Positions 15,831 to 33,342 are shown, counted from the stretch's first letter. The stretch: DNA of 64,000 nucleotides from Arenicellales bacterium (GCA_963662635.2 CAXXFC010000004.1:8559-72558); one strand, 5' to 3'. Notes: a model not told the origin generated them from the letters alone. Made by a program: numbers and translations.

Positions 15831-15986
15831 AACTTGTCAATCAGACCGATCAAACAGTCGAAAAGAATCTATTGGTGACCTGAGCGTCAGATCTCAGTTA
15901 ACGCGATGGAATCTTCCGACCAATAGAGGAATCCTGATCGGTACGTCAGAAACAAGTCCAACTTCAGTTGGCTACAGCCAATCGGC

Positions 15987-16988
15987 TTAGTCAGTTCCAT
16001 TGACTCTGACGACGATGCGTCCAACAATCGATCCATCCATGAACTGGTCGAACGAAGCGGGAAGGTTATCAAATTCAACCACCTCTTTCACAATCAGATT
16101 CATATCCGCAGGTTTCAGGTCCGAGCACATTCGCTCCCATGCGTTATCTCGAACTTCCCTTGGCATCTCAAGCGAGTTGATGCCCAGCAGGGAAACCCCT
16201 CTTAGGATAAACGGCATCACAGTCGTTTTGAGTCCGACTCCACCGGCAAGCCCAACTGAACCGATATTGCCCCAAGGCTTGACGGTTCTGGTCAGCCAAC
16301 CCAGAATATCCCCACCGACGTTGTCAACCGCACCACCCCATTGCGCTCTCTCCAGAGGTCGATCACCCATATCCAAGCTGTGTCGATCAATCAGTTCGCC
16401 GGCTCCTAGCTGTCGAAGATATTGCTCATGCTGTTTTTTTCCTGAGAGTGCGATGACATCGTAACCCAAGCCGGAAAACATACTGATCGCGAAACTCCCG
16501 ACCCCTCCGGTCGCACCGGTGACTACAATCGGTCCGCGTTCGGGAATCTGTCCATTATCTTCCATTCGAATGACTGCGATCGCTGCAGTGAATCCAGCGG
16601 TGCCAAATGCCATCGCATCATATTCTGAGAGCCCCGATGGCATCGGCACAATACAATCACCCGGAACTCTAGCGTATTCTGAGTAACCACCGTCGTGAAT
16701 CTCAGACAACCCACAACCCACCACGAGTACAGAATCGCCTTCTTTGTAGCGCGAATCATTCGAGGCAGCAACTTTTCCTGCCAAGTCGATTCCACCATTG
16801 AGCGGGTACTTCCGCAAAATCCGTCCCTTCCCAGTCGCAGCAAGGGCATCTTTGAAATTGATCGTGGAATAACTCGTTTTGATTACGACATCGCCCTCAG
16901 TCAGGTCGTCAAGCGACATATTCGTGAAATTCGCAGATATGGATTTATCTTCGCCTTGGCTGATACGGTAACTGCGGAATGTATCCAT
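15987..16988 (-). CDS. YhdH/AcuI-family NADPH-dependent oxidoreductase (acrylyl-CoA reductase-like)
   Basis: ORF 15987..17036. Start moved to MDTFRSYRI (GGAG 7 nt upstream). Strings INFKDALAATGKG, GGYSEYARVP and VTGATGGVGS match the MDR/YhdH family. Confidence 0.75.
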   Translation of the reverse strand: MDTFRSYRISQGEDKSISANFTNMSLDDLTEGDVVIKTSYSTINFKDALAATGKGRILRKYPLNGGIDLAGKVAASNDSRYKEGDSVLVVGCGLSEIHDGGYSEYARVPGDCIVPMPSGLSEYDAMAFGTAGFTAAIAVIRMEDNGQIPERGPIVVTGATGGVGSFAISMFSGLGYDVIALSGKKQHEQYLRQLGAGELIDRHSLDMGDRPLERAQWGGAVDNVGGDILGWLTRTVKPWGNIGSVGLAGGVGLKTTVMPFILRGVSLLGINSLEMPREVRDNAWERMCSDLKPADMNLIVKEVVEFDNLPASFDQFMDGSIVGRIVVRVNGTD

Positions 16989-17280
16989 TTTGTTCTCCTT
17001 GGGTATGTAGGGATTTAGTCCGAATACTTGGTGCAAAGAAAATTTCGAATAAAGTTCGACAGTTTCTAATCTAATTCACAATCTTCAAAGCACGCAGTAT
17101 TTTATAGCACTTCGAATTTTCAACGCACTCATCCTCTGTTCGCGGCTGTTTTTCTGGCTTCCGAGGCTGTCAAAAATTTTCCAATGATAAGGCGTTAAAA
17201 AATAATCAAAACATAACAAAAAATTGTTGTATATTTTTGCGACTTTTTATTTTTTTGCTGACTTAATTTGACGACAAACA

Positions 17281-18231
17281 ATGAGTTTCACACAATATGC
17301 GCAAGCAACAACCCGGCTACAGAGAAGCGAACTGGCAGTTCCAGGATCGCGGCCGGAATTCTTCGAAAAAGCGGCGGAATCCAACGCTGATTTCATCTTT
17401 CTCGATTGTGAGGACGCTGTTATTCCAGATGATAAGGAACGCGCACGTCACAACATCATCCAAGCACTGAATGAAATTGACTGGAAGGGCAAGACAATGT
17501 CTGTTCGGATCAATGGATTGGATACGCACTATATGTACAGGGACGTAGTGGATATTGTCGAGCAAGCAGGGAATTGCCTCGATACGATTCTGGTTCCGAA
17601 AGTCGGTCATTCTTCTGATGTATACATGGTTGACTGCTTGCTCACCCAGATCGAGACAGCAAGGCAACTGAAAAGGAAAATCGGCATAGAGTGTCTAATT
17701 GAAACCGCATTGGGAGGTGCCAATGTGATGTCTATTGCACAATCAAGTGCGAGACTCGAGGCATTGCATTTTGGAGTGGCCGACTATGCGGCGAGCATGC
17801 GTGCGCGAACAGTGAATATCGGAGGGCTAAACCCGGATTATCAGTGTGACGGAGCATTAGGTGATCAGTGGCACGCTACGCTGGTAAATATGGTGACCGC
17901 ATGTCGTGCGTATGGGCTTCGGGCGATTGATGGACCCTATGGAGACTTTAGCGACCCCAACGGATATCGCGACGCCGCGAAGCGCGTTGCTGCTTTGGGT
18001 TATGAGGGTAAATGGGCAATTCATCCGAGTCAGATTGATCTGGCTAATGAAATCATGTCGCCTCCGGAACAGGAAGTGCACCGAGCCAAGTGTGTTCTGA
18101 AAGCGTTGGAGGAAGCTGCGAAGGCTGGCAGAGGTGCCGCCGAGTATGATGGAAAGATGATTGATGCGGCATCCGAAAGAATGGCAAGAAACATCGTAGC
18201 GCAGGCTGAACTCATTGCCAATAAGTCCTGA
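17281..18231 (+). CDS. mcl: L-malyl-CoA/beta-methylmalyl-CoA lyase (HpcH/CitE family)
   Basis: 316-aa ORF, near-collinear by recall with Methylobacterium MclA (RSELAVPGS, IFLDCEDAV, INGLDTHYMYRDVVDIVE, GVADYAAS, IDGPYGDFSDPNGY, GKWAIHPSQIDLAN, EEAAKAGRGA). Confidence 0.85.
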   Translation: MSFTQYAQATTRLQRSELAVPGSRPEFFEKAAESNADFIFLDCEDAVIPDDKERARHNIIQALNEIDWKGKTMSVRINGLDTHYMYRDVVDIVEQAGNCLDTILVPKVGHSSDVYMVDCLLTQIETARQLKRKIGIECLIETALGGANVMSIAQSSARLEALHFGVADYAASMRARTVNIGGLNPDYQCDGALGDQWHATLVNMVTACRAYGLRAIDGPYGDFSDPNGYRDAAKRVAALGYEGKWAIHPSQIDLANEIMSPPEQEVHRAKCVLKALEEAAKAGRGAAEYDGKMIDAASERMARNIVAQAELIANKS

Positions 18232-18302
18232 CAGACTGCTTGACGGTTCAAGGGTCGTCAATTGGTTAATGAAAGTTTATAAAACAGGGAGTTACATCAG
18301 AA

Positions 18303-19490
18303 ATGGATATTCACGAATATCAGGCAAAGGAAATTCTATCGGGTTTCGGAATTCCGGTCCCTAGAGGAGGCGTTGCCTACAGTCCCGAACAGGCAGTCTA
18401 TCGCGCCAATGAGATTGGTGGAGAGAAATGGCTGGTCAAGGCACAGATTCATTCAGGTGCGCGCGGCAAGGCAGGTGGGATCAAGTTTTGCCACAATGGC
18501 GAGGAAATCTGGAATGCTTCGGAAAGTTTGTTGGGTCAGCGACTGGTTACCCACCAAACCGGAAGCCAAGGCAAGCTCGTATATCGCCTCTATGTCGAGG
18601 AGGCTTTTGAGATTGAACATGAGTATTACATCGGTTTTGTTTTGGACCGACAGAAAGAGCGAATTGCAATTGTCGCGTCATCCCAAGGTGGTATGGAGAT
18701 CGAAGAGATAGCCTCAGTTGATCCGAATTCAATTGTCAGGGCTACAGTTGAGCCTGCCGTTGGAATGCAACCATTCCAAGCACGGGATATAGCCTTTGCG
18801 TTGGGAATTGACAGGCGACTCACCAGTCAGGTTGTTACCACACTGCTTGGATGTTATGACGCACTCGTCAATCTCGATGCCATGATGGTCGAGATCAACC
18901 CTCTTGCTGTAACTAAAGAAGGTGCACTGGTTGCTCTGGACGCAAAAATGGGATTCGATGACAATGCTCTTTTCAGAAGACCGAGCATTTCAGAATTGAG
19001 AGATAAATCCCAAGAAGACATTCGTGAGATGCGGGCGGCCGACCGCGGTTTGAATTATGTTGGCCTTGATGGAAATATCGGTTGCATTATCAATGGTGCC
19101 GGACTGGCGATGGCAACTATGGACATTATCAAGCATGCCGGTGGTGAGCCTGCCAATTTTCTGGATATTGGTGGGGGTGCAACACCGGAACGCGTTGCCA
19201 AAGCAATTCATTTGGTTTTGTCCGACAGTAAAGTCGAGACGGTTGTCGTCAATATATTTGCGGGAATCAATCGGTGTGATTGGGTTGCCGAAGGTATTGT
19301 TCAAGCTGTCAGCAATCTCGAATTGGACATTCCGTTGGTGATCAGATTGTCAGGGACAAACGCTGACAAGGGGCGTGAAATATTACTGAAAAGTGGACTT
19401 GACTTCTATATCGCGGACACGTTGAAAGAAGTCGCGAAAAAAGCGGTTGATGCATGGAAGAAACACCGAGAGAGAATGGAGGCAGAATAA
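18303..19490 (+). CDS. mtkA: malate--CoA ligase (malate thiokinase) beta subunit / SucC paralogue
   Basis: 395-aa [63 protein letters not shown] and [15 protein letters not shown] closely resemble MtkA. It lies immediately downstream of mcl. Confidence 0.8.
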
Positions 19491-20377
19491 TGGCGATTTT
19501 GATCGACAGGGATACAGCTGTAATCGTCCAGGGATTTACCGGACAGACCGGTACATTCCACTCGATGGAAATGATTGAGTATGGAACGAATATTGTCGGC
19601 GGTGTTACGCCGGGAAAAGGCGGAACCACAAATTTGAACAGACCAGTGTTTGACACCATGCGCGAAGCTGTACAGGCGACAGGTGCAACGGCAAGCATTT
19701 CGTTCATCCCACCGCCATTTGCAGCAGACGGCATCATGGAAGCAGCTGATGCAGGAATCAAATATTGTGTTTGTATTTCTGATGGCATACCGGCTCACGA
19801 CATGATTCGTGTGAAGCGCTATATGCGTCGTTACAGAGCGAAGGACAAAATGATCCTGACCGGGCCAAATTGCGCTGGCACAATCAGTCCAGGTAAATCA
19901 ATGTTGGGAATCATGCCTTCGCACATCTACAAGGAGGGCTTCGTTGGAATAATTGGAAGGTCTGGAACATTGGGATACGAAGCAGCTTCGCAGTTGAAAG
20001 CCCATGGTATCGGAGTCTCGACCAGTGTGGGCATAGGCGGTGATCCGATTAACGGTAGTTCCTTTCGGGATCATCTCGAGCGATTTGAAGAAGATCCGCA
20101 AACCAAGCTGGTCGTGATTATTGGCGAAATTGGCGGACCTCAGGAAACAGAGGCTGCTGCTTTTTTTCGTGACCATATGAAAACCCCCGTTGTCGGATAC
20201 ATTGCAGGTCTGACAGCGCCCAAAGGGCGACGTATGGGACACGCTGGTGCAATCATCTCAGCCTTTGGAGAAAGTGCCGCGGAAAAAGTTGAGATTCTCA
20301 CGGAATGTGGAGTCAAAGTTGTACCCAGTCCGGCGGAATTTGCTGAGACAATTTCAGAGGAATTGGAGAAACTTTAA
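19490..20377 (+). CDS. mtkB: malate--CoA ligase alpha subunit / SucD paralogue
   Basis: ORF 19454..20377. Start placed at [24 protein letters not shown], whose ATG overlaps the mtkA stop (TAATG at 19488..19492). CoA-ligase alpha strings are present (GPNCAG, SRSGTLGYE-like GRSGTLGYE, MGHAGAI). Confidence 0.8.
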   Translation: MAILIDRDTAVIVQGFTGQTGTFHSMEMIEYGTNIVGGVTPGKGGTTNLNRPVFDTMREAVQATGATASISFIPPPFAADGIMEAADAGIKYCVCISDGIPAHDMIRVKRYMRRYRAKDKMILTGPNCAGTISPGKSMLGIMPSHIYKEGFVGIIGRSGTLGYEAASQLKAHGIGVSTSVGIGGDPINGSSFRDHLERFEEDPQTKLVVIIGEIGGPQETEAAAFFRDHMKTPVVGYIAGLTAPKGRRMGHAGAIISAFGESAAEKVEILTECGVKVVPSPAEFAETISEELEKL

Positions 20378-20508
20378 ATTTTGCGGCGATTTCAATTGTG
20401 CAGTGAACAATCTTCAAGATGCTGGAATTGATGCTTGTTGTGTTTTCCTTGAGCTAACCAATATAGAGTAAGGCTAGTAAAAAAAAAATTAATTCAATGC
20501 AAGGATGT

Positions 20509-20758
20509 TTAACTTCTGAATTTTCGGACGTTGCAGAGGTGCTGTGAGCTGCTGGAAGAACAGTTGGTGCCGTGTACGGATAGCGTCAGGTAGCAGAGAT
20601 CGTCGATGATCAGCAGCGTGGTTCGGGTGTAAAAACATAGCTTGGACTGATCTGTTTGGCGCGCTGCGCCAGTGAGTCGATCAGTTCGGCCAGCGTGCAC
20701 CGGTACACGCTATTGCCAGCCTTGAACGCACAGATTCCGAGCACACGCAGGCGAGGTA
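20509..20758 (-). mobile_element. decayed fragment of an IS21-family istB (helper ATPase) gene
   Basis: Three minus-strand frames together spell IstB-like segments: LGICAFKAGNSVYRCTLAELIDSLAQRAKQ / TTLLIIDDLCYLTL (Walker B, cf. LLIIDEIGYLP) / QLFFQQL (cf. LFFQVI). Stops and frameshifts lie between them. There is no istA and no full istB. The fragment is locally more GC-rich than its surroundings. Confidence 0.55.
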
Positions 20759-20759
20759 G

Positions 20760-20779
20760 TTATGTGGAACTCCACATAA
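20760..20779. repeat. 20-bp palindrome ttatgtgga-ac-tccacataa next to the IS remnant
   Basis: Read directly: the 9-bp arms are perfectly complementary with a 2-nt centre. Located between the istB relic and the stop of the 20863..22131 gene. Confidence 0.7.
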
Positions 20780-20862
20780 CCATCTAGCTGGCTCAGTGGG
20801 CCCAGTTGCTTCATTTCCAAATGCTTCTTAAATCTGATTCGGATTGTTGTAATTTCGTCGCT

Positions 20863-22131
20863 CTACTCGATAGGTTCCCCCCATACTTGAAGAACTTCGT
20901 TGATCGCTTCAACTAATTTGTCAACGAGATTTCCCTTGTTCTCCCATTCAATTATTGTGTCGAGACAGCAATCGTAAGAAAGTTCAAATCTAGGGCTTAT
21001 GTTCATCTGGTTATATTCGTTTTCTATCACGTCGTTAACTATCGCCATATCATCTTCAGTCAGTAGTGGTGGTAAAATCTGTTGCCATTGATTGACAATA
21101 TTCATAAACCCGTCTGCATTGTGCTGGCCTATTTGGCACTGATTCTCGGCAAAATATTCCCAGTAATCTTCGCATTCTTTATTAGTCTTGGTTTCGCATA
21201 CAGACCAAGCACGTGATATGCGGAGATTTGGCACAATTTTCCAACCGTGGTTGCCAAGATCCATGAATTGGTCTTGATTTGCGTTGTTGAAAAAGCGACG
21301 AGCCTGTTCAACTTTAACCCCAGGCCACAATCTTACAGTGAGTAGATTCTGCTTCGCACTACGCCAAATACATATGTATTCAGCAATAGTGTTTGGTCGG
21401 TACAAACAGTTATTCTTGCGCTCAGTCTCATTCACATGCCCCACGATTTCGTTCAGTAGTAGATTTATCCTTCGATCTAATGCTATATCACCTTTACAAA
21501 GACGAAATGTTCTGTACGGAGTCAGATTGAGGTTTTTTTTACCACCGAAACGCTCCACATAAGACAAAAAGTCAACTATTAATTTACGAGCAGTAAAGTT
21601 GGAGAAATTTAATTGCATGTATTCAAGTAAACTTTCCAAAAGTCCTGACCACTCCAAAAATACCGGTTGCTTCACGAGTTCGATAGCGTCGATATCTTCT
21701 ACTGGGTTTTGTGACGGATTCAGTTGCTCACAACAAATATCCTCGCGTGAAGGTTTGTTTTCGATAATCAGAGTTGTTCCGTCCGGATATTCGATCACTC
21801 CATCGTATATTGCATTTTCAAGTCTCCATGTAATTTTTATGTCTTGTTGACAATCACTTACGTCATCAGTAATTAGAACTGACACAATGCGAGTTGTTTT
21901 AGCCTCATCAAAACGTCCTTTTTGTGTGACCACACTAACTTGACCCAAAGATGAATTGACAATAGCATTGTCTTCACATAACTTAGATTCCACTAGGTTT
22001 CGAAAAAACCACTGAAAGAATGGGATAGACTCGATGACACACAAGAAAGCCCAAGTTAATCTGTCTTCGTGATATTTGTTATTGTCATGACGTGCTCTTA
22101 CAGGGTTAAACAGTTCTGGCCTTCTTTTCAT
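20863..22131 (-). CDS. hypothetical protein with a PD-(D/E)xK nuclease-like motif set
   Basis: 422-aa ORF with a good RBS (GAGGAG 5 nt before the ATG). Motifs: helix HEDRLTWAFLCVIE (E22), then YDGVIEYPDGTTLIIENKP (D110 ... E124-N-K126). AT-rich. I cannot name a family. Confidence 0.45.
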   Translation of the reverse strand: MKRRPELFNPVRARHDNNKYHEDRLTWAFLCVIESIPFFQWFFRNLVESKLCEDNAIVNSSLGQVSVVTQKGRFDEAKTTRIVSVLITDDVSDCQQDIKITWRLENAIYDGVIEYPDGTTLIIENKPSREDICCEQLNPSQNPVEDIDAIELVKQPVFLEWSGLLESLLEYMQLNFSNFTARKLIVDFLSYVERFGGKKNLNLTPYRTFRLCKGDIALDRRINLLLNEIVGHVNETERKNNCLYRPNTIAEYICIWRSAKQNLLTVRLWPGVKVEQARRFFNNANQDQFMDLGNHGWKIVPNLRISRAWSVCETKTNKECEDYWEYFAENQCQIGQHNADGFMNIVNQWQQILPPLLTEDDMAIVNDVIENEYNQMNISPRFELSYDCCLDTIIEWENKGNLVDKLVEAINEVLQVWGEPIE

Positions 22132-22560
22132 CTCCTCTGTACATTCATCAAATTCGCTTATCGCATACTATGGTAGTAACTTTTTCAATTTTGCCAGTAA
22201 CAGCCCCCAACAGAATAAATCGGTATAACTCTTGTATTGAAAAATATTCACATTGACTGTGAAAAACGACAATGTACCCCGAAACCAAGAATATGAATAG
22301 TGACTTCCGCCAACTACACTTTCGCCCATGTCATCGAGTCAACTCTACAGTAAGCCCCGAATATGGCTGGGATCGCCAGACAGAGGAAACAACACCATTG
22401 CCGGTGGCAGACAATGGCGGAATTGATTCAAAATTTAACATCATTCATGGCGGACGGGGAGATCGTTTGGCCACCGATCATGGAGGTATTTATGCGGAAG
22501 TTTAATCCCTTCAGGTAGGTACCTCCAAAAGAATTTCCACGCGTCAATAATTTATCCTCG

Positions 22561-25532
22561 TCAATTTCGTACAATCGGTTCTGCGCACCATGAACTGCGA
22601 ACTAAATCGACAGACTCAAGGATTGTCGAAGAATGACCAAGTAACTTGACTAGGACAGCTTCATCCAATACCTTTCGTGTTTTGTCGATGTGCGCTTGAT
22701 TGGCTGGTAAGAAAGACCGCTCCTTGAATTCATTAAAGATATCGTTGCACTTTTCCAGTTGTATGTCCGTTAGGGTGCGAGGGTCTAAGACTACCAATTT
22801 ATCGTGTTGAGATACTTGTACCATGGAACGTCCTTGATGTTGTCTGGTTCCCATCCACCAAAATGACAATAAACCCAGCGTGGAATTTGCCCATAACAAT
22901 ATAGGAATTTCCCATTCTCTGTTGTTTAGCACTAAATTTGGCCACGCTCTGCCACCAATTGACTTGGCTGGAGTAATGCACATCGCCAGTGATTGTGATT
23001 TCAGGGAAAAGTCACAGTTGATGTGCAATTGAGTGGCGTATGTATCCCAAAGTTCAACCGCTCGTGCATCGCAGTTTGGTCTGACAAAACATTGGCAATC
23101 CGGCGCGACAACAAGTTGCCGCTCTCGACTGGCATCATGATTCCAAAGAGCTGGATAAAGCGGGGGAGGATCACCTTCGGCCAATAAGACAGGAGCTTTT
23201 TCAAATGGACCTCGTGGTTCATCGTCTTTTTCATGTGGTGCTCCACTGATGTCCAAGTGATGCAATCCTCTCTTGCCGATTTCGTGTAAGCTTGTCATGC
23301 CAATATCCAAGTAATCCGGCATCCGAGGCAGTTTGATGCGTTTGGTCTCACATATTCCTCTTGATACGGGCACTAATGTCTGAACAGAACTTACACCTGC
23401 GCACCCACCTGTATTGAGTGGCGCCGAAACAAAACTGCCAATAGGGTTAGTATTTGAGCACTTGGAAAACTGAATAAGCCCGCCATCTGATTCAGGTAAT
23501 TCGTGAATCAATCTTGCAACAGTAGTTGCCTCCAACAGTGATTGAGGACGGCGATTCAAGTTCACGAATAGAGCATCTTCAGTTCTCTCGTCATCTTCAG
23601 ATTCTCTTTTTGTTGCGACTATCAGCCCTTCCGCCATTCCTGTATCAGCCGAAAACGCCTGACCTTTAACTTCGGAAGTGGCAACCGATATAACGACGAC
23701 ATCCCGATAATTTTCTGCGATCAGTTGTCTGGATTTTCGCCACGCCTCTCCTTGTGTAAATGTGAAAGGAAGAACGAAGGCTAAGTGGCCGTTAGGAGCA
23801 AGTTTTTCGTGGGCTAGATCTAGAAAGTTCGAGGCTAATCCGGCATTGCCATGACCAGCAATCAGACCATTTTTTCTTTTTGACCGAAGTTCAGAATTAA
23901 TGCCCTTCAATAGACGTGACATTTCATATTGTTCCGCTCTTGACGTGTCAAAACCGGCGAAAGAAGGCACTGGAATTCCTAATTTTGCAGTGTCATGTGT
24001 TGTGGGTCGAGTAAATGGGGGTTCATTATGATCACATCTAATGAATTCCGATGAACAGTTATTGTCTCATTGGGATCTTTATCCCGTAACCCTCTGAGTA
24101 TGCCTCGGCCCAGTGAAAACAGAGATTCTGTATCTTGTTCAATCATCAGGTCCAAAGAACCGATTTGCGGGATGTTCTGGTCGTTGAATCCATACGGCAT
24201 TGTTACAATTTTTGTTCCATCGAAAACCACGTTCGGATGTGCATTTGATACGGTTGAGGCTGTTAGGTGGGTAGCCGCTGGCATAATGTCAAATGCCAGT
24301 AAAGAATTATTGACCATCGATGAATGAATCATTGCATCGTCGCATCCTCTTCGTCGATGCTGAGAGAGAATAGTATGATACATCGCTCCGATCAGGGTCC
24401 CAGTGCCGCATGCGAAATCCGCTATCCTAAGTTTCTTGACTTCGTCCGCATCTTGCCAATCGATTTTCGTTCGCAACGCAATCAGCTCTGCAAGCAATAC
24501 CGCAGATTCGGGGCGGGTATAGAAAGTAGCAAGAAATTTTCTATCAGAAATCAATCGCTGAAACATGCGGCCTGACAGATCATTCAGACTCGTTGCTCCA
24601 ATCTCGGCCAGCTCACTGGCTGTGTCATGCAGGCGATTCAAGACCTGATTGGCCTGTTTATTCGGTAATACATCAAGCAAATCTGCAGCGATTTTAAAAA
24701 TTGGCCAATAGTTGACGTTATTTACAATCCATCTCCAACAATCAATGACACTCTTTTTGTGAAGTCCAGTGGAAACCGAGAGGGAACTTAGTGGTTGAAT
24801 GTTCTGCTCACCTTCCAATCGTGAATGAAACATTAACGCATTTGCAATGATGGCAATTGCCATACGGTCAGTTTGATCTCCCTGAGACTGGTGTAAAAAT
24901 TTTGCTATGTTTTCGTGAACTGTTTTCTTTGATGATTTGATCAGGTTTGCAGCCTGTGATACACCTTTTTCTAGGACATCGGTACTTCTTAGAATCAGCG
25001 ATTCAGAAAGGGAAACGACTTCCAGACATTGGCAGAGATCATCTACATCGCCAGTTATCCATCCCTCATCCGGCCATCTTTCAATTTCGCAGTCTTCGGT
25101 AATTGAGTAAACACAGAAAGTGAATTGACATCGTAATATAACGGTGTCAATCGCACTCTGATCGTATGTTCTGAATTCCTTGGGAATTTCAATGGCAAAC
25201 ACATGCTCAATTTTCTTATTGTTTTCCGCAAGACGTTTACCTAGACGAGATTCCGCATCTTTTTCGACAGTACGTGCGGGCAGATATTCAAGTTCAAGTA
25301 TCACAGGTGACCTGTCTTCAGGAGATAGCAGGATATCAGGTTGATGACTTGGATTTTCTTGCAGAACCTGAGTTTGTTCTACTCGAATTGAAGAACGCCA
25401 TCGGGTATTCTTCGTTCGGAGTGCCCGACCGAAAGCATCATTGAAAACTGATTCTGTAGCGGAAGCCATTAATGAATGAAATACTGATTGGCGACGAATA
25501 GATATATTGTGAATTTTGTCTGATAAAAACAT
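22561..25532 (-). pseudogene. ~990-aa gamma-class N6-adenine DNA methyltransferase with large unassigned N- and C-terminal regions, split by a 1-nt frameshift in the NPPF motif (or sequencing error)
   Basis: ORF 23979..25532 has FYTRPESAVLLAEL and RIADFACGTGTLIG (motifs X/I) and ends DVIIMNPHLLDP*. ORF 22561..23970 continues in the neighbouring frame. Adding one C to the C5 run (plus-strand G5 at 24017..24021) gives DVIIMNPPFTRPTTHDTAKLGIPVPSFAGFDTS..., which restores NPPF and one long ORF. Confidence 0.8.
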
Positions 25533-25819
25533 CTATGGTCAGCAGTAGCTGATCGCCCCGTCCACCATGAAAAGGTGATATATCTCAAATCAGCCCATCG
25601 TCTGAGGGAGCCCGAAGACAGCAAGGTTACGGGGATTGCTGTAGGGCTGACCTGATGACAAGCGCGAAAGAGTAGGAAATCGAAATTATTTTCCATTTTC
25701 ATGGGGTAGGGGTGGTTTTGTCTTTTTTTTTACAACTTTGGTGTAAGTATTTTTCAAGGCAAATAGACCGTTGTTCCGCAATCGTTCACACTGGAATGCA
25801 TAGATCAACTGAGTAGTGT

Positions 25820-27601
25820 TTATTCGGCATCTTGGGCGGTATCTTCTTCGATAGATTTGGCGAGCATTCGTCCTGCCAGATCTTCGCCTTTGACTGTTCG
25901 TCGATAGCGCTGGTTCTTGCTGGTTGGCTTATCCGGCAATGTGAGTTCAATCAAGCCAGCTTTGAGGGCGGGCTGCAAGTAGGATTTGGCGAAGTATTTT
26001 CGATGGTTGAGGTTTAGCGCATCCTGCAATTCTGTCCGTCTCATCTCTTTGTCAAGAGCCCCGATCACTCGTTCAACCTGTCGAGTGATCGGGGCGGTAT
26101 CTTGGGCGGTATCTTGGGCGGTATCTTGGGCGGTATCTTGGGCGGTATCTTGGGCGGTATCTTGGGCGGTATCTTGGGCGGTATCTTGGGCGGTATCTTG
26201 GGCGGTATCTTGGGCGGTATCTTGGGCGGTATCTTGGGCGGTATCTTGGGCGGTATCTTGGGCGGTATCTTGGGCGGTATCTTGGGCGGTATCTTGGGCG
26301 GTATCTTGGGCGTTTGATACAACATTCATCTTTGAATGTGCTGGAAGTCGGACTAAAAACGATGTTCGGTAGTCATCACTTTCAAATATAGGCTCCGATG
26401 ATCCATTTTGCCGCATGGCTCTAAATATCTTTGGAACACCGGTTGATCTTCCTTCGGCTAAATCTAATTCCTTTAAAAACTCACCAACACGACGGTTTAG
26501 ATAGCGTCGGTTGACAGCTCGTCCTTTGCGAAGATCTTCCATACGGACAGATCTGTCAGCACCCGGATAGCTGATGATTATTATTTCGTCTGAACTGACA
26601 CGAACTTCCACAGGCTCTCGAATTTCGTATGAGCGGTGGTAGATGGCATTGACTAATGCTTCTTCTATCGCATCAATCGGAAAATTCCAGAATCTTTCCG
26701 CTTCGGGTCTGTCTGGATGTTTGACTACGACTTCTTTCAGATAGTTTCGTTGAATGAAACTAATCGCTTCCCGCAGAATGAGCCATATTGGCCCGCGAAA
26801 TTCCTTTTCTTCAAAGACATCGCCACCCGGGCCATCGGGAAACCATACAACATCTATCTGAGTGACCGGAAAGTAGTTGTGAGGTTGATCGTTAAAGAAA
26901 AGTAACCCCACATTTTTTGGAAACATTGCCTCTGGGGGGCCGCCGACAATATTCATACGTTGCCCCAGGTCACCAATCGAGAGCTGATCTGATTGCGACT
27001 CGAGTTCACTGCCGACCTCTGAAAGATATTGCCGGATGAGTCGATAGGACAAGTCATACAGCGAAGCTATTTGGCAATATCTATCGTCGAAGGGAACCGT
27101 TGCAGCCAGCCCCAGCAACTCATTTTCATCTGAACCCTTTGCGCGAACAGTACTACTATGCTTGCGGATGTAATAGGCCCATTCGGAATTTCTTTTTGAG
27201 AGGTCAACTTTTGCCCTGTAGGGGCGGGTTTCTCCACCGGGAACCCAAAGAACCAAAATAGTACGCCCATTGAAGACATATGTCGCCGTCCGCGAGTGGT
27301 AGTAGGGCTGAATCGCAGAATTTCCGAGATTCAACAATTCTCTTTGTATTGAATCAATCTTGTTCGGATCGATGCCTACCGGCGGCATTGAGGGGCGACC
27401 ATCCCGTGCCTCTACACCTATGACCACGTAACCACCACCGAGATTGTGAAAGTCATTGGCAAATGCACAGATTGTGTGCAGAACGCTCTTTGGATTCCAA
27501 CCCTTCTTGTATTCAATTCGCTCGCCTTCGACCGAGCGTTGACGTATCAAATTTTCAAAGTTGATGGGAAGTTTATTGATCATGGTATAGTCGGCGTGCA
27601 T
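25820..27601 (-). CDS. AlbA_2 (Schlafen-like) + HATPase_c_4-like + C-terminal winged-helix protein ('RecG-like putative transcriptional regulator' family) with an (AQDT)18 insert
   Basis: 593-aa ORF. N-terminus ERIEYKKGWNPKSVLHTICAFANDFHNLGGGYVVIGVE (AlbA_2). Middle ALVNAIYHRSYEIREPVEVRV...EGRSTGVPKIFRAM (HATPase_c_4-like). C-terminus LIELTLPDKPTSKNQRYRRT. Confidence 0.75.
   Translation of the reverse strand: MHADYTMINKLPINFENLIRQRSVEGERIEYKKGWNPKSVLHTICAFANDFHNLGGGYVVIGVEARDGRPSMPPVGIDPNKIDSIQRELLNLGNSAIQPYYHSRTATYVFNGRTILVLWVPGGETRPYRAKVDLSKRNSEWAYYIRKHSSTVRAKGSDENELLGLAATVPFDDRYCQIASLYDLSYRLIRQYLSEVGSELESQSDQLSIGDLGQRMNIVGGPPEAMFPKNVGLLFFNDQPHNYFPVTQIDVVWFPDGPGGDVFEEKEFRGPIWLILREAISFIQRNYLKEVVVKHPDRPEAERFWNFPIDAIEEALVNAIYHRSYEIREPVEVRVSSDEIIIISYPGADRSVRMEDLRKGRAVNRRYLNRRVGEFLKELDLAEGRSTGVPKIFRAMRQNGSSEPIFESDDYRTSFLVRLPAHSKMNVVSNAQDTAQDTAQDTAQDTAQDTAQDTAQDTAQDTAQDTAQDTAQDTAQDTAQDTAQDTAQDTAQDTAQDTAQDTAPITRQVERVIGALDKEMRRTELQDALNLNHRKYFAKSYLQPALKAGLIELTLPDKPTSKNQRYRRTVKGEDLAGRMLAKSIEEDTAQDAE
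26091..26311 (-). repeat. perfect tandem repeat, 12-bp unit gggcggtatctt x 18 plus a 5-nt partial copy, in frame (AQDT)n
   Basis: Counted directly: 216 nt of identical units at 26091..26306, then gggcg. No mismatches at all. Confidence 0.95.
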
Positions 27602-27603
27602 TA

Positions 27604-27712
27604 GAACTGGTTCATCTTCAATAGTGAGTATTCATCCATGAGGCAGATCGTGCAGTCGACACAAACATTTCGTTTAGTTGCAGTTTTCACTAAATTAGCT
27701 CGAACTGGTTCA
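27604..27712. repeat. 11-bp direct repeat gaactggttca (27604..27614 and 27702..27712) just upstream of the AlbA_2 gene start
   Basis: Read directly. The first copy lies 3 nt upstream of the annotated start codon (27599..27601) and the second 98 bp further upstream. Confidence 0.6.
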
Positions 27713-28093
27713 GGCTTGATTGGATTTTTTTGGATGCCTTGAGTGAGAAGAACATCAACCTATTTCCGTCACTTCGAACTTGCTATGAGACAAAAATTTA
27801 TTGATTTCAGCCAGTTGATGTTGAATTATATTCGAACAATACATTCTCACGGTATGGTAAATCCACCCGAACATTCGGATAAACAGTAACTTGAGAGATA
27901 CCGCTGAAATCTTTCGCTATTACCGATATTTGATTCGCACGCCAACACCAAGTTGGATTAATTTCCGATAACGTTATTGAATACACTTGATTCGAAGTAG
28001 TTCTGTAGTTGTATCAGATTGATCGTCTGCCAGCGGAATTGAATTCCTTTTGTTCTCTATAATTCCGAGTTTCATGAATTCACATCAATCGAA

Positions 28094-28450
28094 ATGGGAG
28101 GTCCCGTGACAGAGGAAACAATTTTCAGCAAGATTATCAGAAAGGAAATTCCGGCGGATATCGTCTACGAGGATGATTTAGTGCTGGCATTTCGTGACAT
28201 TGCACCGCAAGCTCCTGTACATTTTCTGATCATACCCAAGAAAGTCATTTCAACAGTGAACGACATATCTGAAGACGATGAGGTGACACTCGGACGATTA
28301 TTTTCAGCTGCTGCCAGGCTTGCGAAAGAGCACGGTGTCGACGAAAGCGGTTATCGCTTGACGGTCAATTGTAATTCTGATGGAAGGCAGGAAGTATTTC
28401 ATTTGCATATGCACCTGATGGGTGGCCGTATGATGCAGCGTATGGGGTAG
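28094..28450 (+). CDS. hinT: histidine triad nucleotide-binding protein (purine nucleoside phosphoramidase)
   Basis: [44 protein letters not shown]...[13 protein letters not shown] closely parallels E. coli HinT. The true start may be the GTG at 28106 (GGAGG 5 nt upstream). Confidence 0.85.
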
Positions 28451-28582
28451 ATATGGTTGACAGCTGATGGGCTGAAGATATTGGATTGAGCATGCTCCAC
28501 AATATTTGAGCGAATATGTTCGGACTCGACAGGTGGGTCAAGAGCAGGGGACTGAATATTCAATCCCGTATTTGTCGGGAAT

Positions 28583-28948
28583 TTATTCGGTTTGAGCTGC
28601 TGTCTCCTCGTTGGGTTCCTCTTTGCCTTCCTGCTCAACTTCACGAACGCGATCATTCTCAAAATAGATCGTTACGCGCTCCTTGAGTACTATATTCCTC
28701 GGATTGCCGACTATTGTCAGTATGTAATCCCATCGGTCCGGATTGAATGTGTCAACCACCAAAGGTGTACCTAAAATAGCCTGCACTTCGTCTTTGGTCA
28801 TTCCACTTTCAACTCTCGATACATTCTCAGCATCGGTTATCTGTCCCTGATGGATGTCCGGTCGATAGACCGCGCAGCCGGATAGTGCAATAGCACCTGC
28901 CAGTGCCATACAGAATAGGCAATGTAATTTATTAAAATAATTTCTCAT
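28583..28948 (-). CDS. bamE: outer-membrane protein assembly factor BamE (SmpA/OmlA lipoprotein)
   Basis: 121-aa ORF with a lipobox (ALSGC), then VYRPDIHQGQ...GMTKDEVQAILGTP...DRWDY. Confidence 0.85.
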   Translation of the reverse strand: MRNYFNKLHCLFCMALAGAIALSGCAVYRPDIHQGQITDAENVSRVESGMTKDEVQAILGTPLVVDTFNPDRWDYILTIVGNPRNIVLKERVTIYFENDRVREVEQEGKEEPNEETAAQTE

Positions 28949-28961
28949 ATAATTGAAAGAA

Positions 28962-29447
28962 TTAAATTATTTCTCTTTGCACTGCAATCTCATCGCAGTC
29001 GGTAAATTTGTGACACTTGATGCAGACACCCCAAACTTTTTCAGGGAAGATAGACTTCGGAACTACGTGAAATCCTAGATTCTGGAAGAACCCAGGCACG
29101 TAAGTCAGAGCCATGACGCGCGACAGTCCCAATGTTCTAGCTTTTTCTATCAGAGCCTCTACGAGTGTGCCACCCAACCCTCGATGGGTTGATTCGCTGT
29201 CAACTACAAGACTGCGGATTTCGCAAAGCGTTTCAGAAAAGATTTCCAGCGCGGCACATCCCTGAACAGTTCCGTTGACTTCCACAACACTGAACTTCAT
29301 CAGGTTGTCATAGATTTCATCCTTTGAACGCGGCAGAAGCACACCGGTAGACATATGAACTTCCATCAGCTTGAAAATTCTATCGACATCCGACGCCATG
29401 GCATCCCGGACTATTGGTTTGTGCAGTAACTCAGCGGCGTGCATCAA
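28962..29447 (-). CDS. GNAT-family N-acetyltransferase (ArgA C-terminal-domain-like)
   Basis: 161-aa ORF (TTG start in the track) with an acetyl-CoA-binding stretch LVVDSESTHRGLGGTLVEAL. It overlaps the recN stop by 4 nt. Confidence 0.7.
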   Translation of the reverse strand: MMHAAELLHKPIVRDAMASDVDRIFKLMEVHMSTGVLLPRSKDEIYDNLMKFSVVEVNGTVQGCAALEIFSETLCEIRSLVVDSESTHRGLGGTLVEALIEKARTLGLSRVMALTYVPGFFQNLGFHVVPKSIFPEKVWGVCIKCHKFTDCDEIAVQREII

Positions 29448-31110
29448 TTAATTCCATTTGCGAGCATTTCTTTTGCATGTTCGACAGTACGATCGGTAAT
29501 TTTAGCACCACCGAGCATACGCGCTATTTCATTTATACGTTGATCGCGGTCAAGCAAGTTGACTTCGACACTGGAAGTCCCTGCTGTTATTTTCGATACG
29601 TTCATTTGCTGATGTCCCTGCGCAGCCACCTGTGGCAGGTGGGTAATACAGATGATCTGCACCGATTGTCCGAGTGCCTGCAACAGCTTACCCACACGTT
29701 CGGCCACTCTCCCACCGATTCCGACATCTACTTCGTCAAAAACAATGGTCGGAACTTTTGCTACATCAAGAGATGTCACTTGAAGCGCGAGACTCAGTCG
29801 AGACAGTTCACCGCCGGAAGCGACATCCGAAAGCGCACCAATGGCTTGCCCTGGATTGGTTGAAACCAGGAATCTGGTGTTCTCATAACCGAAACTCTCG
29901 AATTGCTCCGGGTCGGTTTCAGCAAGTTCGATTTCGAACACACCGCCCTCCATTCCCAAATTCTGCATGTGACTGGTAATCAGTTGTTCGAACTGGACTG
30001 TCTTCGACTTACGTCTGTCGCTGATCCTTGACGCAATTCTGTGATACTCGCGTTTGTATTCCTCTATATTCGAATCGAGGTGTGCGATCTTCTCAAGTCT
30101 GTTCTCATAAGTTTCGATTTTAAATTGCAGTGCTTCCATCGCGGAGGGCAGCTCATCTGCATCAACATCGTGAACCCGCGCCAGCCGCTGCAGTGCGGCC
30201 ATTCGTTGCTCGATTTCCTCGATGTCGCCAGGGTTGTGTTCGATGCGATCTGCGAGGGTTCGCAGTTCCCGGGCGACATCATCCACACGGAATTTGGCTT
30301 CTTCCAACAACTCAATGTGAGATTGGATGGTGGAATCGAATTCGCTGAGTCTGAGCAATTGTCTGGTGTATTCGCTTAGTGTTCCGCTCACAGTCGACTC
30401 ATCAGAGTAGAAAAGACCTAGCGAACCTCACCCAGTGTGGACGAAAGCTCCCCTGAATGGGAAAGTTGGAGCAACTTTTCCTTTAAGGCTGAAAATTCAT
30501 CTTTCTCGGGTGTCAGTTGTTGAAAAACCGCATGCTGATCGCGCAGAAACTCAAGATGCTGCTCATAGCTTGTCTTAAGTTGTTCGGCATCCGATCGATC
30601 TGATTCTGCCTTGTGAATTTGTCGGGAACTATCAGAGAGTCCGTTCAAGTCTTCTGAGTTGCCGGCAAAGCCATCCAGAATGCCTCTCTGAGTCGTCGCC
30701 TTGAGCAACATGTGATGTTCGTGCTGACCGTGAATGTCAACCAAGGTAGACCCGAGGTCTCGCAAGGTTTGCAATGATGCAGAACTACCGTTGACGTAGA
30801 CCCGGGTGGGCTTGACTGTGAAGATTTCTCGATGGATGATACAGGTTGAACCGGTATACAGATTATTGGATTGAAGTAATTCAACCGTACGGGAATTGCT
30901 TGCCTCAAATTTAACCGTTATTTCCGCCTTTTCACAGCCTTCCCGGACAATACCGGCATTGGTGCGTGCACCAAAGGCAAATTTCAGAGAGTCTACAACC
31001 AGAGATTTCCCGGCGCCTGTCTCACCTGTTATGACTGTCAGACCCTGGTCGAACTCAACCTCGACTTCCGGAATCAATAGATAATTTTTGATATGAAGGG
31101 ACTTGAGCAT
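29444..31110 (-). pseudogene. recN: DNA repair protein RecN, split by a 1-nt frameshift (or sequencing error)
   Basis: N-terminal half at 30418..31110 (MLKSLHIKNYLLI...ITGETGAGKSLVVDSL). C-terminal half at 29444..30391 (...GGELSRLSLALQ...IVFDEVDVGIGG...QIICITHLPQVAA). Minus-strand reading ...LGEVR* in one frame and LGLFYSDESTVSGTLSEY... in the next. Inserting one nt within 30418..30430 fuses them. Confidence 0.85.
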
Positions 31111-31126
31111 TCTTGAATCGATCGGA

Positions 31127-31978
31127 TCAAACACCCAACCCGAGTTTCTGTCTTAGTGCGTTGTAGAAGGTATGACCGGTAATACGAATGAAATTCACTG
31201 TGTGTCGGTCGCGCTGCACTACGATTCGTTCATTACCAGAAAATTCGGCACGGACGTGGCCATCCACTACAAGACTGGCATTAACTGGTGCCACGTCATC
31301 TAGGTGTATGTCGATACTGCTGGTATCACTCAGTACAATCGGTCGGTGCGTCAAGGTATGTGGATTGAGCGGTACCAGTTCCAGAGCGGGTAACGTCGGA
31401 TATAGCACTGGCCCACCTGCAGAAAGCGCATACGCTGTTGACCCTGTCGGAGTGGCAACAATCACACCGTCCGCGCGTAAATTCGTCATAAAGTTACCAT
31501 CAACTGAAATTTCAATATCAATTAGGCGACCATAGTTTGATTTATGGACAACAATGTCGTTCAAGGCGCTGAATTTCTTGATCTGTTCGCCCGATAGTGT
31601 GATTGTAGCGGTCAACATCATACGAGTTTCGATGGAGTATTCGCCATCGAGTGCTAAATGCATTGATTCCTCAATCTCGCGTACTGCGACATCGGAAAGA
31701 AATCCACGTCTTCCGATGTTGACTCCCAGAACCGGTGATTTACAGCCAGCACGCAATCTCGCAACATTCAAGAATGTCCCATCGCCGCCGACAATGATTG
31801 CCAGATCAAGCTCATCGTCGTCGATTCCCTGATTTTTCTCGCTCTCGAGAATCGACGTGAAATACTGTCGATGCGTGATCGAATTCGAGTCGAGTATGAC
31901 GGCAATTTTGTCGATGACCGAGGTGACAGCATCGTCTTCAAGATTACCGAAAATTCCAATGGTTTCGAATTCAGCCAT
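31127..31978 (-). CDS. nadK: NAD(+) kinase
   Basis: 283-aa ORF with the GGDGTFL motif (AIIVGGDGTFLNVAR), and TPTGSTAYALSAGGP. Confidence 0.9.
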   Translation of the reverse strand: MAEFETIGIFGNLEDDAVTSVIDKIAVILDSNSITHRQYFTSILESEKNQGIDDDELDLAIIVGGDGTFLNVARLRAGCKSPVLGVNIGRRGFLSDVAVREIEESMHLALDGEYSIETRMMLTATITLSGEQIKKFSALNDIVVHKSNYGRLIDIEISVDGNFMTNLRADGVIVATPTGSTAYALSAGGPVLYPTLPALELVPLNPHTLTHRPIVLSDTSSIDIHLDDVAPVNASLVVDGHVRAEFSGNERIVVQRDRHTVNFIRITGHTFYNALRQKLGLGV

Positions 31979-32286
31979 TTTTCGTTACCAGTTTTACGAA
32001 TATATTCAGACCAATGGTTTTGGTATACAACTAAAATTGCGGATTACCGGGGAATTTTCGGGCAAACAAAATTGGTCTATTTCCGCTGCGATTTGCGATT
32101 AATTACTCAAAAGTGTTTGGTATCGCGGTTTGAGACAGCTACTCATCATAAAATTCGTCTCAAATTCCTGAATTTCATGCAATCGGTTATATACTTGAAT
32201 ATGGTAGAATTATGCACTCAATTTTACTCTGTAATTACCGAAAAGGATAATAGCGGATCTTATCTAGGATAGTATAAAGATAGGCT

Positions 32287-33342
32287 ATGGGAAACGCTGA
32301 CTTCAGGCTCGATGAACGATCCGAAAACTTGCTGCGTATGTTGATTGCCCGCTTTATTGATGACGGGCAGCCAGTTGGTTCACGCACGCTCTCTCACGAA
32401 TCGGGCATGCAACTGAGCGCGGCAACGATCCGGAATGTCATGGCGGATCTGGAAGATATGGGATTGATACGGGCTCCTCACACCTCGGCGGGACGGATAC
32501 CGACCGCATTAGGGTATCGGTTGTTTATCGATACACTCCTGACGGTCCGCCCCTTGAGGTCTGCAAAGGAACAAGAGATCAAGATTCGACTCAATGAGGA
32601 AAGCGACGCTAAAGTACTGATGTCGACGGCATCCAATTTGTTGTCTGATGTGACACAGTTCGCTGGCATAGTATTCCTGCCGAAGGCTTCTGTCGCAAAA
32701 TTTCGGCAAATCGAATTTGTCAGTCTGCCCCGGGCACGCGTACTTGTCATTCTGGTAACTGAGGATGGCCAAGTTCAGAATCGCGTGATCAGCAATGATC
32801 GGAATTATTCCGCATCGGAATTGACTGAGGCGGCTAATTTCTTTAATTCAACTTATCGCGGCAAGTCACTCTCCGAAGTCAAGGATCATCTGCTGAAAGA
32901 AATGAAGAGTGACAGCGATCAGATCAATCAACTGATGCAGACCGCGATTACAATTGCGAAGAGTATGTTCAGTCAGGAAATGCGCGATGAGGAAGACGTT
33001 GTTGTCAGCGGCGAAGAGAATTTGCTCAATGTGCCGGATTTGGCCGCGGTTGAAAAAATAAGGAAAATATTCGAGACCTTCAAAACGCGACATTCGTTAC
33101 TGAGTCTGCTTGACCAGAGTATCAGGGCACGCGGTGTGTCAATTTTCATCGGAAGCGAGTCCGGTTACGAAGGCTTGGATGAGTGCAGTGTGATTGCCGC
33201 GCCTTACGAGGTGGAAGGGCAGAGTCTTGGCGCTATCGGTGTGATTGGACCGACTCGAATGCCGTATGACCGGGTGATTCCAATTGTCGATGTCACCGCG
33301 AAAATGTTGGGCAATGCATTGACGCACCTGACTCACGATTGA
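32287..33342 (+). CDS. hrcA: heat-inducible transcription repressor HrcA
   Basis: 351-aa ORF with LDERSENLLRMLIARFIDDGQPVGSRTL...LEDMGLIRAPHTSAGRIPT. It lies upstream of grpE-dnaK-dnaJ. Confidence 0.9.
   Translation: MGNADFRLDERSENLLRMLIARFIDDGQPVGSRTLSHESGMQLSAATIRNVMADLEDMGLIRAPHTSAGRIPTALGYRLFIDTLLTVRPLRSAKEQEIKIRLNEESDAKVLMSTASNLLSDVTQFAGIVFLPKASVAKFRQIEFVSLPRARVLVILVTEDGQVQNRVISNDRNYSASELTEAANFFNSTYRGKSLSEVKDHLLKEMKSDSDQINQLMQTAITIAKSMFSQEMRDEEDVVVSGEENLLNVPDLAAVEKIRKIFETFKTRHSLLSLLDQSIRARGVSIFIGSESGYEGLDECSVIAAPYEVEGQSLGAIGVIGPTRMPYDRVIPIVDVTAKMLGNALTHLTHD

Follow-up and report, generated by a model that had tools for sequence, protein, structure and literature searches.

Results

Gene content of the mtkB-hinT interval

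The DNA analyzed here is a 64,000-nucleotide (nt) stretch from an Arenicellales bacterium (GCA_963662635.2, CAXXFC010000004.1:8559-72558), hereafter the window, and the element in question is a restriction/defense locus located between mtkB (19454-20377) and the HIT-family gene hinT (28094-28450). Calls of open reading frames (ORFs) place three genes in this interval, all on the minus strand. Their coordinates and content, as well as the defense character of the locus, had been correctly described in an earlier reading made from the sequence alone (the sequence-only reading). The first gene is an intact ORF of 422 amino acids (aa) (20863-22131, minus strand) encoding a solitary protein with an N-terminal PD-(D/E)xK-like domain and a C-terminal alpha/beta domain. 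The second (22561-25532, minus strand) is a frameshifted gene of the Type IIG-like restriction-modification (R-M) kind; if repaired it would encode 990 aa comprising a predicted nuclease, a connector, a gamma-class N6-adenine methyltransferase (MTase) and a putative recognition region. The third (25820-27601, minus strand) encodes a 593-aa prokaryotic Schlafen (pSlfn) protein with SLFN/AlbA_2 and GHKL-type HATPase_c_4 domains, a (QDTA)18 linker and a winged helix-turn-helix (wHTH) domain. Whether these genes constitute one system is the subject of the present analysis.

On its left side the trio is bounded by a decayed istB (helper ATPase) fragment of the insertion sequence (IS) IS21 (20509-20729, minus strand), which the sequence-only reading had already noticed. 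The segment 20480-20790 matches annotated istB genes by blastn (76-85% identity over 52-77 nt), its translation retains a Walker-B 'LLIIDD' remnant, and there is a weak NCBIfam match with IS21_help_AAA (IstB) at E = 0.02. The same fragment is found in a sister genome, L007, described below. Between this scar and the nuclease gene, some 80 nt beyond the stop codon of the latter, an inverted repeat forms a near-perfect hairpin (20751-20788) with the core GTTATGTGGA/TCCACATAAC (GTTATGTGGA AC TCCACATAAC). This palindrome could be a terminator or the remnant of an IS end. A terminator-like hairpin with a 10-bp stem and a T-rich tail (22393-22419, minus strand) separates the stop codon of the MTase gene from the start of the nuclease gene. 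On the right side, the divergent Schlafen and hinT genes are separated by a gene-free, AT-rich spacer of 492 nt (27602-28093; GC content 0.378), in agreement with the earlier description. No Rfam family was found in the spacers, the only direct repeats flanking the island are 14-mers at chance level, and the window contains neither hsd genes nor other remnants of a Type I system.

With a GC content of 0.442, against 0.479 for the whole window, the mtkB-hinT region comes near the minimum (0.4408) of a scan of the window in 7.7-kb stretches. The earlier characterization of the block as AT-richer is valid for the nuclease gene, whose 0.398 falls under the 1st percentile of same-size windows, for the MTase gene (0.442) and for the spacers, but not for the block as a whole: the Schlafen gene, with 0.486, is genome-typical.

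The Type IIG-like nuclease-methyltransferase

The MTase gene appears as two ORFs, 22561-23970 (469 aa) and 23979-25532 (517 aa), both on the minus strand, that together represent one gene. The split is located at a C5 run (24017-24021, minus strand) within the N-P-P-F codons, where 1 nt is deleted with respect to the C6 run of L007. The gene strand reads ATGAAC CCCC ATT at this place, and one added C restores IIMNPPFTRPT and the 990-aa ORF, so that the broken frame reported earlier is borne out. Because the family includes many uninterrupted, full-length homologs (950-1120 aa; about 3000 clusters at 90% identity; best identity 59%), the window gene is considered as disrupted, and the intact frame of a Type IIG enzyme is missing from the window copy. 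A conserved phase-variation tract at NPPF was ruled out, since a C-run of at least 5 at the NPP codons is present in only 6 of 84 homologs. Independent split copies exist among MTase relatives in other genomes: in P0376, P0377/P0378 and P0381/P0382 the break is at most about 15 codons from NPPF, being a frameshift directly behind NPPFT, a frameshift that follows ILPP, or a nonsense codon. In three metagenomic copies, the gene is interrupted at other places.

Sequence libraries detect only the MTase core of this protein. The Pfam Eco57I MTase match (E = 2.8e-5) is just below cut-off, and PADLOC returns mad2 (9e-10, a partial match restricted to the MTase core), Type IIG models (E = 0.005-0.03) and PglX (E = 0.02). 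Family members are named 'hypothetical protein' in their sources. The S-adenosylmethionine (AdoMet) motif I, D372-FACGTG378, precedes the catalytic motif N504-PPF507, which is the order of gamma-class N6-adenine MTases. Residues D372, C375, G376 and G378 (DxxCGTG) are invariant in 80/80 homologs, as are N504, P505 and P506, and position 507 is F in 79 of them and Y in one.

The rest of the chain was interpreted with the help of an AlphaFold2 (AF2) model (predicted local distance difference test score, pLDDT, 71). The best Foldseek match of this model is BpuSI (PDB 3s1s; 3.4e-10), aligned over the whole chain, followed by PglX/BrxX, BsaXI, LlaBIII, DrdV and CamA. In the N-terminal part, the motif PD66-x13-E80xE82 was found, of which P65-D66, E80 and E82, together with R96, are invariant in 69-70 of 70 metagenomic homologs (34-45% identity). 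The C-terminal 350 aa or so are covered by the full-length structural alignments, and no family of target recognition domains was matched by sequence. The approximately 990-aa chain thus appears to unite a nuclease and an MTase in one polypeptide, as Type IIG enzymes do, with catalysis predicted for both. The sequence-only reading had correctly recognized the gamma-class N6-adenine MTase of Type IIG kind, now supported by the motifs, the Eco57I Pfam match and the BpuSI fold match, and had left both ends of the protein unassigned. From Foldseek and the motifs, these ends can be read as the enzyme's own nuclease with a helical connector and as the recognition region, and therefore no separate nuclease would be needed.

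The likeness to BpuSI-like Type IIG enzymes concerns the overall plan, i.e. one polypeptide in which an N-terminal PD-(D/E)xK-type nuclease is followed by a helical connector, a gamma-class N6-adenine MTase and, putatively, a C-terminal recognition region, and also the gene, which stands alone. BpuSI has PD-x15-ExK at the same place (PMC3185434), whereas the window family has a PD-x13-ExE triad, and outside the MTase core no sequence similarity is detectable. PglX/BrxX of bacteriophage exclusion (BREX) systems and mad2 of the methylation-associated defense system (MADS) are likewise large gamma-class adenine MTases (Foldseek 2e-7 to 3e-6). However, their function depends on multi-gene partners (PglZ, BrxC and others), whereas the window family has an invariant nuclease motif and is without conserved neighbors in 83 loci (80 metagenomic loci totaling 715 kb, and the look-ups L004-L006), as would be expected for a self-sufficient enzyme. 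In MADS, mad6-8 are mandatory (bioRxiv 10.1101/2023.03.30.534895); none of the three island ORFs matches mad6, mad7 or mad8, the only resemblance being the partial mad2-like MTase core. Similarly, no ORFs for PglZ, BrxC or BrxL, the companions of PglX in BREX, are present between mtkB and hinT.

The 422-aa protein family

A word-indexed search with the 422-aa protein yielded 110 clusters (best identity 39%), and a profile search against 1.84 billion representatives yielded 1081 clusters, of which 341 are below 1e-30. Most of the 150 best matches listed are about 400-440 aa long, the others including some shorter fragments. The E...D...ExK motif that had been recognized in the single sequence proved to be a family trait, as E22, D110, E124 and K126 are invariant in the alignment of 34/34 members. 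Also invariant are Q70 and the triplets Y109-D110-G111 and E124-N125-K126. The AF2 model is confident (pLDDT 86.9, predicted template modeling score, pTM, 0.82) and has D110 and the ExK on adjacent strands (111-114 and 119-126), after the helix bearing E22. The protein therefore carries the motif of the PD-(D/E)xK superfamily. No match was obtained in Pfam (34 members scanned), PADLOC, NCBIfam or PHROGs, nor any Foldseek match at E <= 1e-3 in PDB or BFVD, nor any profile match in PDB. The C-terminal domain matched no known modified-base reader fold (Foldseek, PDB and BFVD), and comparison with the MTase family revealed no shared nuclease domain (hhalign probability 0.4%).

Solitary PD-(D/E)xK restriction nucleases of the Type IV-like kind include Mrr and enzymes with the PvuRts1I/AbaSI architecture. 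The 422-aa protein resembles them in being encoded by a stand-alone gene without methylase partner, in combining D...ExK with a second domain, and in occurring often among defense or mobile genes. It differs from them in that no sequence or fold similarity was detected and no modified-base-binding domain was recognized.

Across 21 genome loci and 3 look-ups, no conserved neighbor of the 422-aa family was found. The surroundings of the relatives consist of housekeeping genes mixed with ParE toxins, integrases, transposases, HsdR, AbiE and prokaryotic Argonaute (pAgo)/SIR2 genes. Within the set L009-L027, two loci have strong pAgo and SIR2-APAZ matches within 5 kb. Type I HsdR, AbiEi/AbiEii and four ParE toxins occur at other loci of the set. 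In a gammaproteobacterial metagenome-assembled genome (MAG), a 38%-identical relative (L001:10001-11230) is situated just downstream of a serine-cycle cluster whose mcl, mtkA and mtkB are 74-83% identical to those of the window, and beside an N6_N4 MTase and ThaI pair and a ParE/Phd pair. This placement may reflect a shared hotspot or a coincidence. A general association of the nuclease family with the serine-cycle cluster was discarded: the 'mtkAB' match of L027 (49-51% identity) may be a succinyl-CoA synthetase, which leaves L001 as the sole extra case. The small ORFs beside the relatives in L001 and L006 were also considered and are unrelated.

The Schlafen protein

The domains named by the sequence-only reading for the third protein were all recovered by Pfam: SLFN_AlbA_2 (PF04326; 3e-12), HATPase_c_4 (6.5e-9) and a Fic-like_C wHTH (4e-23). 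The Schlafen catalytic motif is intact (E25-GERI-E30-Y-K32, i.e. E25-x4-E30-x-K32). With an SLFN domain bearing Ex4(E/D)xK, a GHKL/HisKinase-like ATPase and a C-terminal HTH, the protein belongs to the HisKinase-HTH class of pSlfn, an architecture that represents 19.2% of prokaryotic Schlafens (PMC13056530). In the literature, proteins of this architecture figure as accessory RNases in close linkage with BREX loci, in at least 1017 taxa (PMC12839542). Cleavage of tRNA and phage defense are known only for other pSlfn architectures: the protective constructs were DUF262 and Ig-like fusions, and no defense phenotype was reported for the HisKinase fusions tested (PMC13056530).

The family is large and conserved, with more than 3700 matches at 55-74% identity. 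Close homologs (59-66% identity) are located in or beside Type I R-M operons in the three contexts examined, two of which show the order hsdR-hsdS-X-hsdM with 4-nt overlaps; in the third, the homolog lies two genes downstream of hsdM. The window protein shares with its class the SLFN/AlbA_2 domain with Ex4ExK, the minimal GHKL/HisKinase-like ATPase, the C-terminal wHTH and a position next to a methylation-based restriction gene. It differs by its location outside a Type I or BREX operon and by its unusually long, perfect (QDTA)18 linker. The linker, between the ATPase and the wHTH, is encoded by an in-frame tandem repeat of 12 nt x 18.4 (26092-26312, minus strand; Tandem Repeats Finder, 100% matches). 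The linkers of homologs consist of imperfect QDTx units, 4 to about 18 in number, and some homologs have a duplicated wHTH. Linker length thus seems to be a fast-changing trait of this family.

Comparison with a sister genome

The sequence-only reading had proposed comparing the mtkB-hinT junction in related genomes, and this was done in one relative, L007 (Arenicellales MAG OY762925.1). The same trio is present there, in the same order mtkB-nuclease-MTase-AlbA_2-hinT. The state of the genes is opposite: L007 has an intact MTase, a frameshifted nuclease and a Schlafen gene that ends prematurely where the repeat begins. The two coding indels are reciprocal. The MTase has C5 in the window (broken) and C6 in L007 (intact), and an A8 run of the nuclease gene (gene strand; 21533-21540, minus strand), intact in the window, is A9 in L007, causing a frameshift that is seen in the pairwise alignment and as split tblastn high-scoring segment pairs. 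Only four indels exist in the 8.3 kb aligned, all in homopolymers. The two non-coding ones are in A/T homopolymers at 20478-20489 and 17238-17243 and include the longest run of the segment (A10).

Synonymous divergence (dS) from L007 was compared over window positions 15677-32388. It is 0.015-0.045 for ADH, mcl, mtkA, mtkB and the nuclease (0.02 for the latter), climbs from 0.11 to 0.22 and 0.30 along the MTase gene, and reaches 0.70 in AlbA_2, with values of 0.49-0.68 in six genes of the right flank. Because dS is stepped along the alignment, we place a recombination boundary through the MTase gene. The pattern suggests a tract of recent homologous recombination, about 8-10 kb long, that would include the serine-cycle genes and end within the MTase gene. 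At least the AlbA_2-MTase part of the island is older than the split of the two lineages and is not a recent insertion. If the term insertion used in the sequence-only reading is taken in this recent sense, it is not supported: the same block is present between mtkB and hinT in L007 at deep synonymous divergence. The ratio of non-synonymous to synonymous divergence (dN/dS) is 0.13 for the MTase, indicating selection until recently, so that its frameshift is young or an error. For AlbA_2, dN/dS is 0.135. L007 also carries a 4.9-kb insertion (L007:14917-19818) between ADH and mcl, i.e. between window positions 17126 and 17216, with a DDE_Tnp_1 transposase (342 aa) and a 911-aa ORF without Pfam match.

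Co-occurrence of the three genes

Apart from the sister genome, none of 20 loci of the 422-aa family has the MTase or AlbA_2 gene within 10 kb (tblastn), and among the 21 genome loci and 3 look-ups the two genes were found together with the nuclease in L007 only. In the reverse direction, 34 nuclease-family queries and AlbA_2 gave no match in the 80 metagenomic MTase-family loci, and neither partner is adjacent in L004-L006. The nuclease and the methylase are thus not co-inherited as a classical Type II pair would be (0/20 and 0/83 outside the sister genome). All-vs-all clustering of neighbors revealed no recurrent partner for either the nuclease or the MTase family, in agreement with the Pfam and PADLOC scans of these neighbors. 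The weak mad2/mad3 matches among the MTase neighbors, unaccompanied by mad6-8, were read as Type I-like M/S genes because mad1, mad2 and mad5 of MADS are homologous to R-M components.

Discussion

Taken together, these data make it probable that mtkB and hinT enclose a small defense island, old and in part decayed, made of three independent single-gene modules that are neighbors and not partners. By analogy with BpuSI, the Type IIG-like enzyme would bind a specific site, methylate the host copies of this site with AdoMet and cut unmethylated incoming DNA nearby; in the window it would have been inactivated by the 1-nt deletion in the C-run of its catalytic NPPF codons. From published work on its family, the Schlafen-HisKinase-wHTH protein is predicted to be a sensor-regulated, tRNA-cleaving effector of abortive infection, normally encoded within Type I R-M or BREX operons and apparently an orphan here. 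The 422-aa nuclease most likely acts alone on DNA, for instance as a modification-dependent or otherwise self-sparing restriction nuclease, and this is the weakest step of the proposal.

Several observations weigh against this interpretation. The activity of all three gene products is predicted, and the role given to the 422-aa nuclease, which has no fold match, is a guess. Its gene is nearly neutral with respect to L007 (dN/dS 0.77; 5.5 synonymous and 16.5 non-synonymous changes), which differs from the housekeeping genes on the left (Fisher's test, p ~0.001), and the window copy departs from 18 of 80 highly conserved columns. These values are compatible with relaxed constraint and speak for a real nuclease frameshift in L007 at least. 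Both frameshifts are in homopolymers, and they could be assembly errors. The N-terminal nuclease of the MTase protein is proposed from the motif, the secondary structure and a low-TM (template modeling score), multi-domain Foldseek alignment, and a profile of this domain alone gave only noise against PDB. Finally, the Schlafen gene is directly upstream of, and co-oriented with, an adenine-MTase gene, mirroring the position of its homologs upstream of hsdM, so that a functional pairing of Schlafen and MTase in this lineage is possible.

This last point leads to an alternative to which we give a small but real chance, namely that the Schlafen protein, acting as a backup effector of abortive infection, is functionally coupled to the Type IIG enzyme next to it, the 422-aa nuclease being independent. 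The translational coupling of close homologs in the two hsdR-hsdS-X-hsdM operons, the homolog two genes downstream of hsdM in the third context and the close link of the same architecture to BREX loci (at least 1017 taxa; PMC12839542) all fit with such a unit, as does the location of the Schlafen gene 287 nt upstream of a co-oriented gene whose MTase product is related to PglX and HsdM. Both genes have moreover been kept at this locus in L007 at deep divergence. However, a Schlafen homolog occurs in 0/83 Type IIG-family loci, although the Schlafen family, 55-74% identical across phyla, is easy to detect, and the two genes are separated by a gap of 287 nt instead of overlapping. In addition, L007 has a truncated Schlafen gene with an intact MTase and the window has the reverse, meaning that neither gene needs the other for its retention.

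The reciprocal frameshifts raise another question. If the nuclease and the methylation were incompatible, this would explain why the opposite gene is inactivated in each sister genome. We think it unlikely that the 422-aa protein is the founding member of a new family of solitary defense nucleases (at least 1000 clusters at 50% identity), built from a PD-(D/E)xK core and a C-terminal domain for which no known fold could be matched, that is modification-dependent and incompatible with the neighboring Type IIG methylation. Slightly less credible still is the corresponding account of the locus, in which this protein would be a Type IV-like modification-dependent nuclease attacking DNA methylated by the Type IIG enzyme, each genome having lost one of the two. 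The C5/C6 and A8/A9 differences, among only 4 indels in 8.3 kb, are what such a conflict would produce. The nuclease family is always solitary, without methylase partner, and an N-terminal nuclease followed by a C-terminal domain is, as far as architecture is concerned, also the plan of PvuRts1I/AbaSI-type enzymes. On the other hand, only two genomes are involved, and slippage or assembly error is to be expected in homopolymers such as those that hold the two indels; the longest two runs of the segment both differ. No known modified-base reader fold was detected in the nuclease, its dN/dS of 0.77 and the deviations at 18/80 conserved columns fit plain decay, and MTase-family members are also split in genomes that have no such nuclease nearby.

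The proposal of the sequence-only reading, one three-part R-M-like system with the 422-aa protein as restriction nuclease, the protein of about 1 kaa as its methylase and AlbA_2 as accessory or regulatory protein, has in its favor that the genes are co-oriented, adjacent, flanked by unrelated housekeeping genes and also present as a trio in L007, but it is essentially refuted by the co-occurrence counts (0/20 and 0/83 outside the sister genome), the invariant nuclease motif and Type IIG fold match of the MTase protein itself, the terminator-like hairpin between the MTase and nuclease genes, the differing histories of the three genes (dS of 0.02, 0.11-0.30 and 0.70 for nuclease, MTase and AlbA_2) and the intact nuclease accompanied by a broken MTase, a combination that would be lethal if the two were a cognate Type II pair. 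The lack of co-conservation in other genomes, here 0/20 and 0/80 metagenomic loci, is also what that reading had itself named as evidence against it.

Considered as three independent modules, the island changes nothing as a system: it is a typical small defense island, and known kinds of genes account for its parts. The locus as a whole is ordinary, and the 422-aa family is its only really unknown part. The Type IIG-like family is under-annotated, not new in principle. For annotation, this means that about 3000 clusters (90% identity) of BpuSI-like nuclease-MTases are labeled 'hypothetical' and are barely detected by PADLOC, Pfam and NCBIfam. The reciprocal frameshifts in two sister genomes are a testable hint of an incompatibility between methylase and nuclease. 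The 422-aa family, with at least 1000 representative clusters of proteins of about 420 aa found among defense genes, is a reasonable candidate for experimental defense screens.

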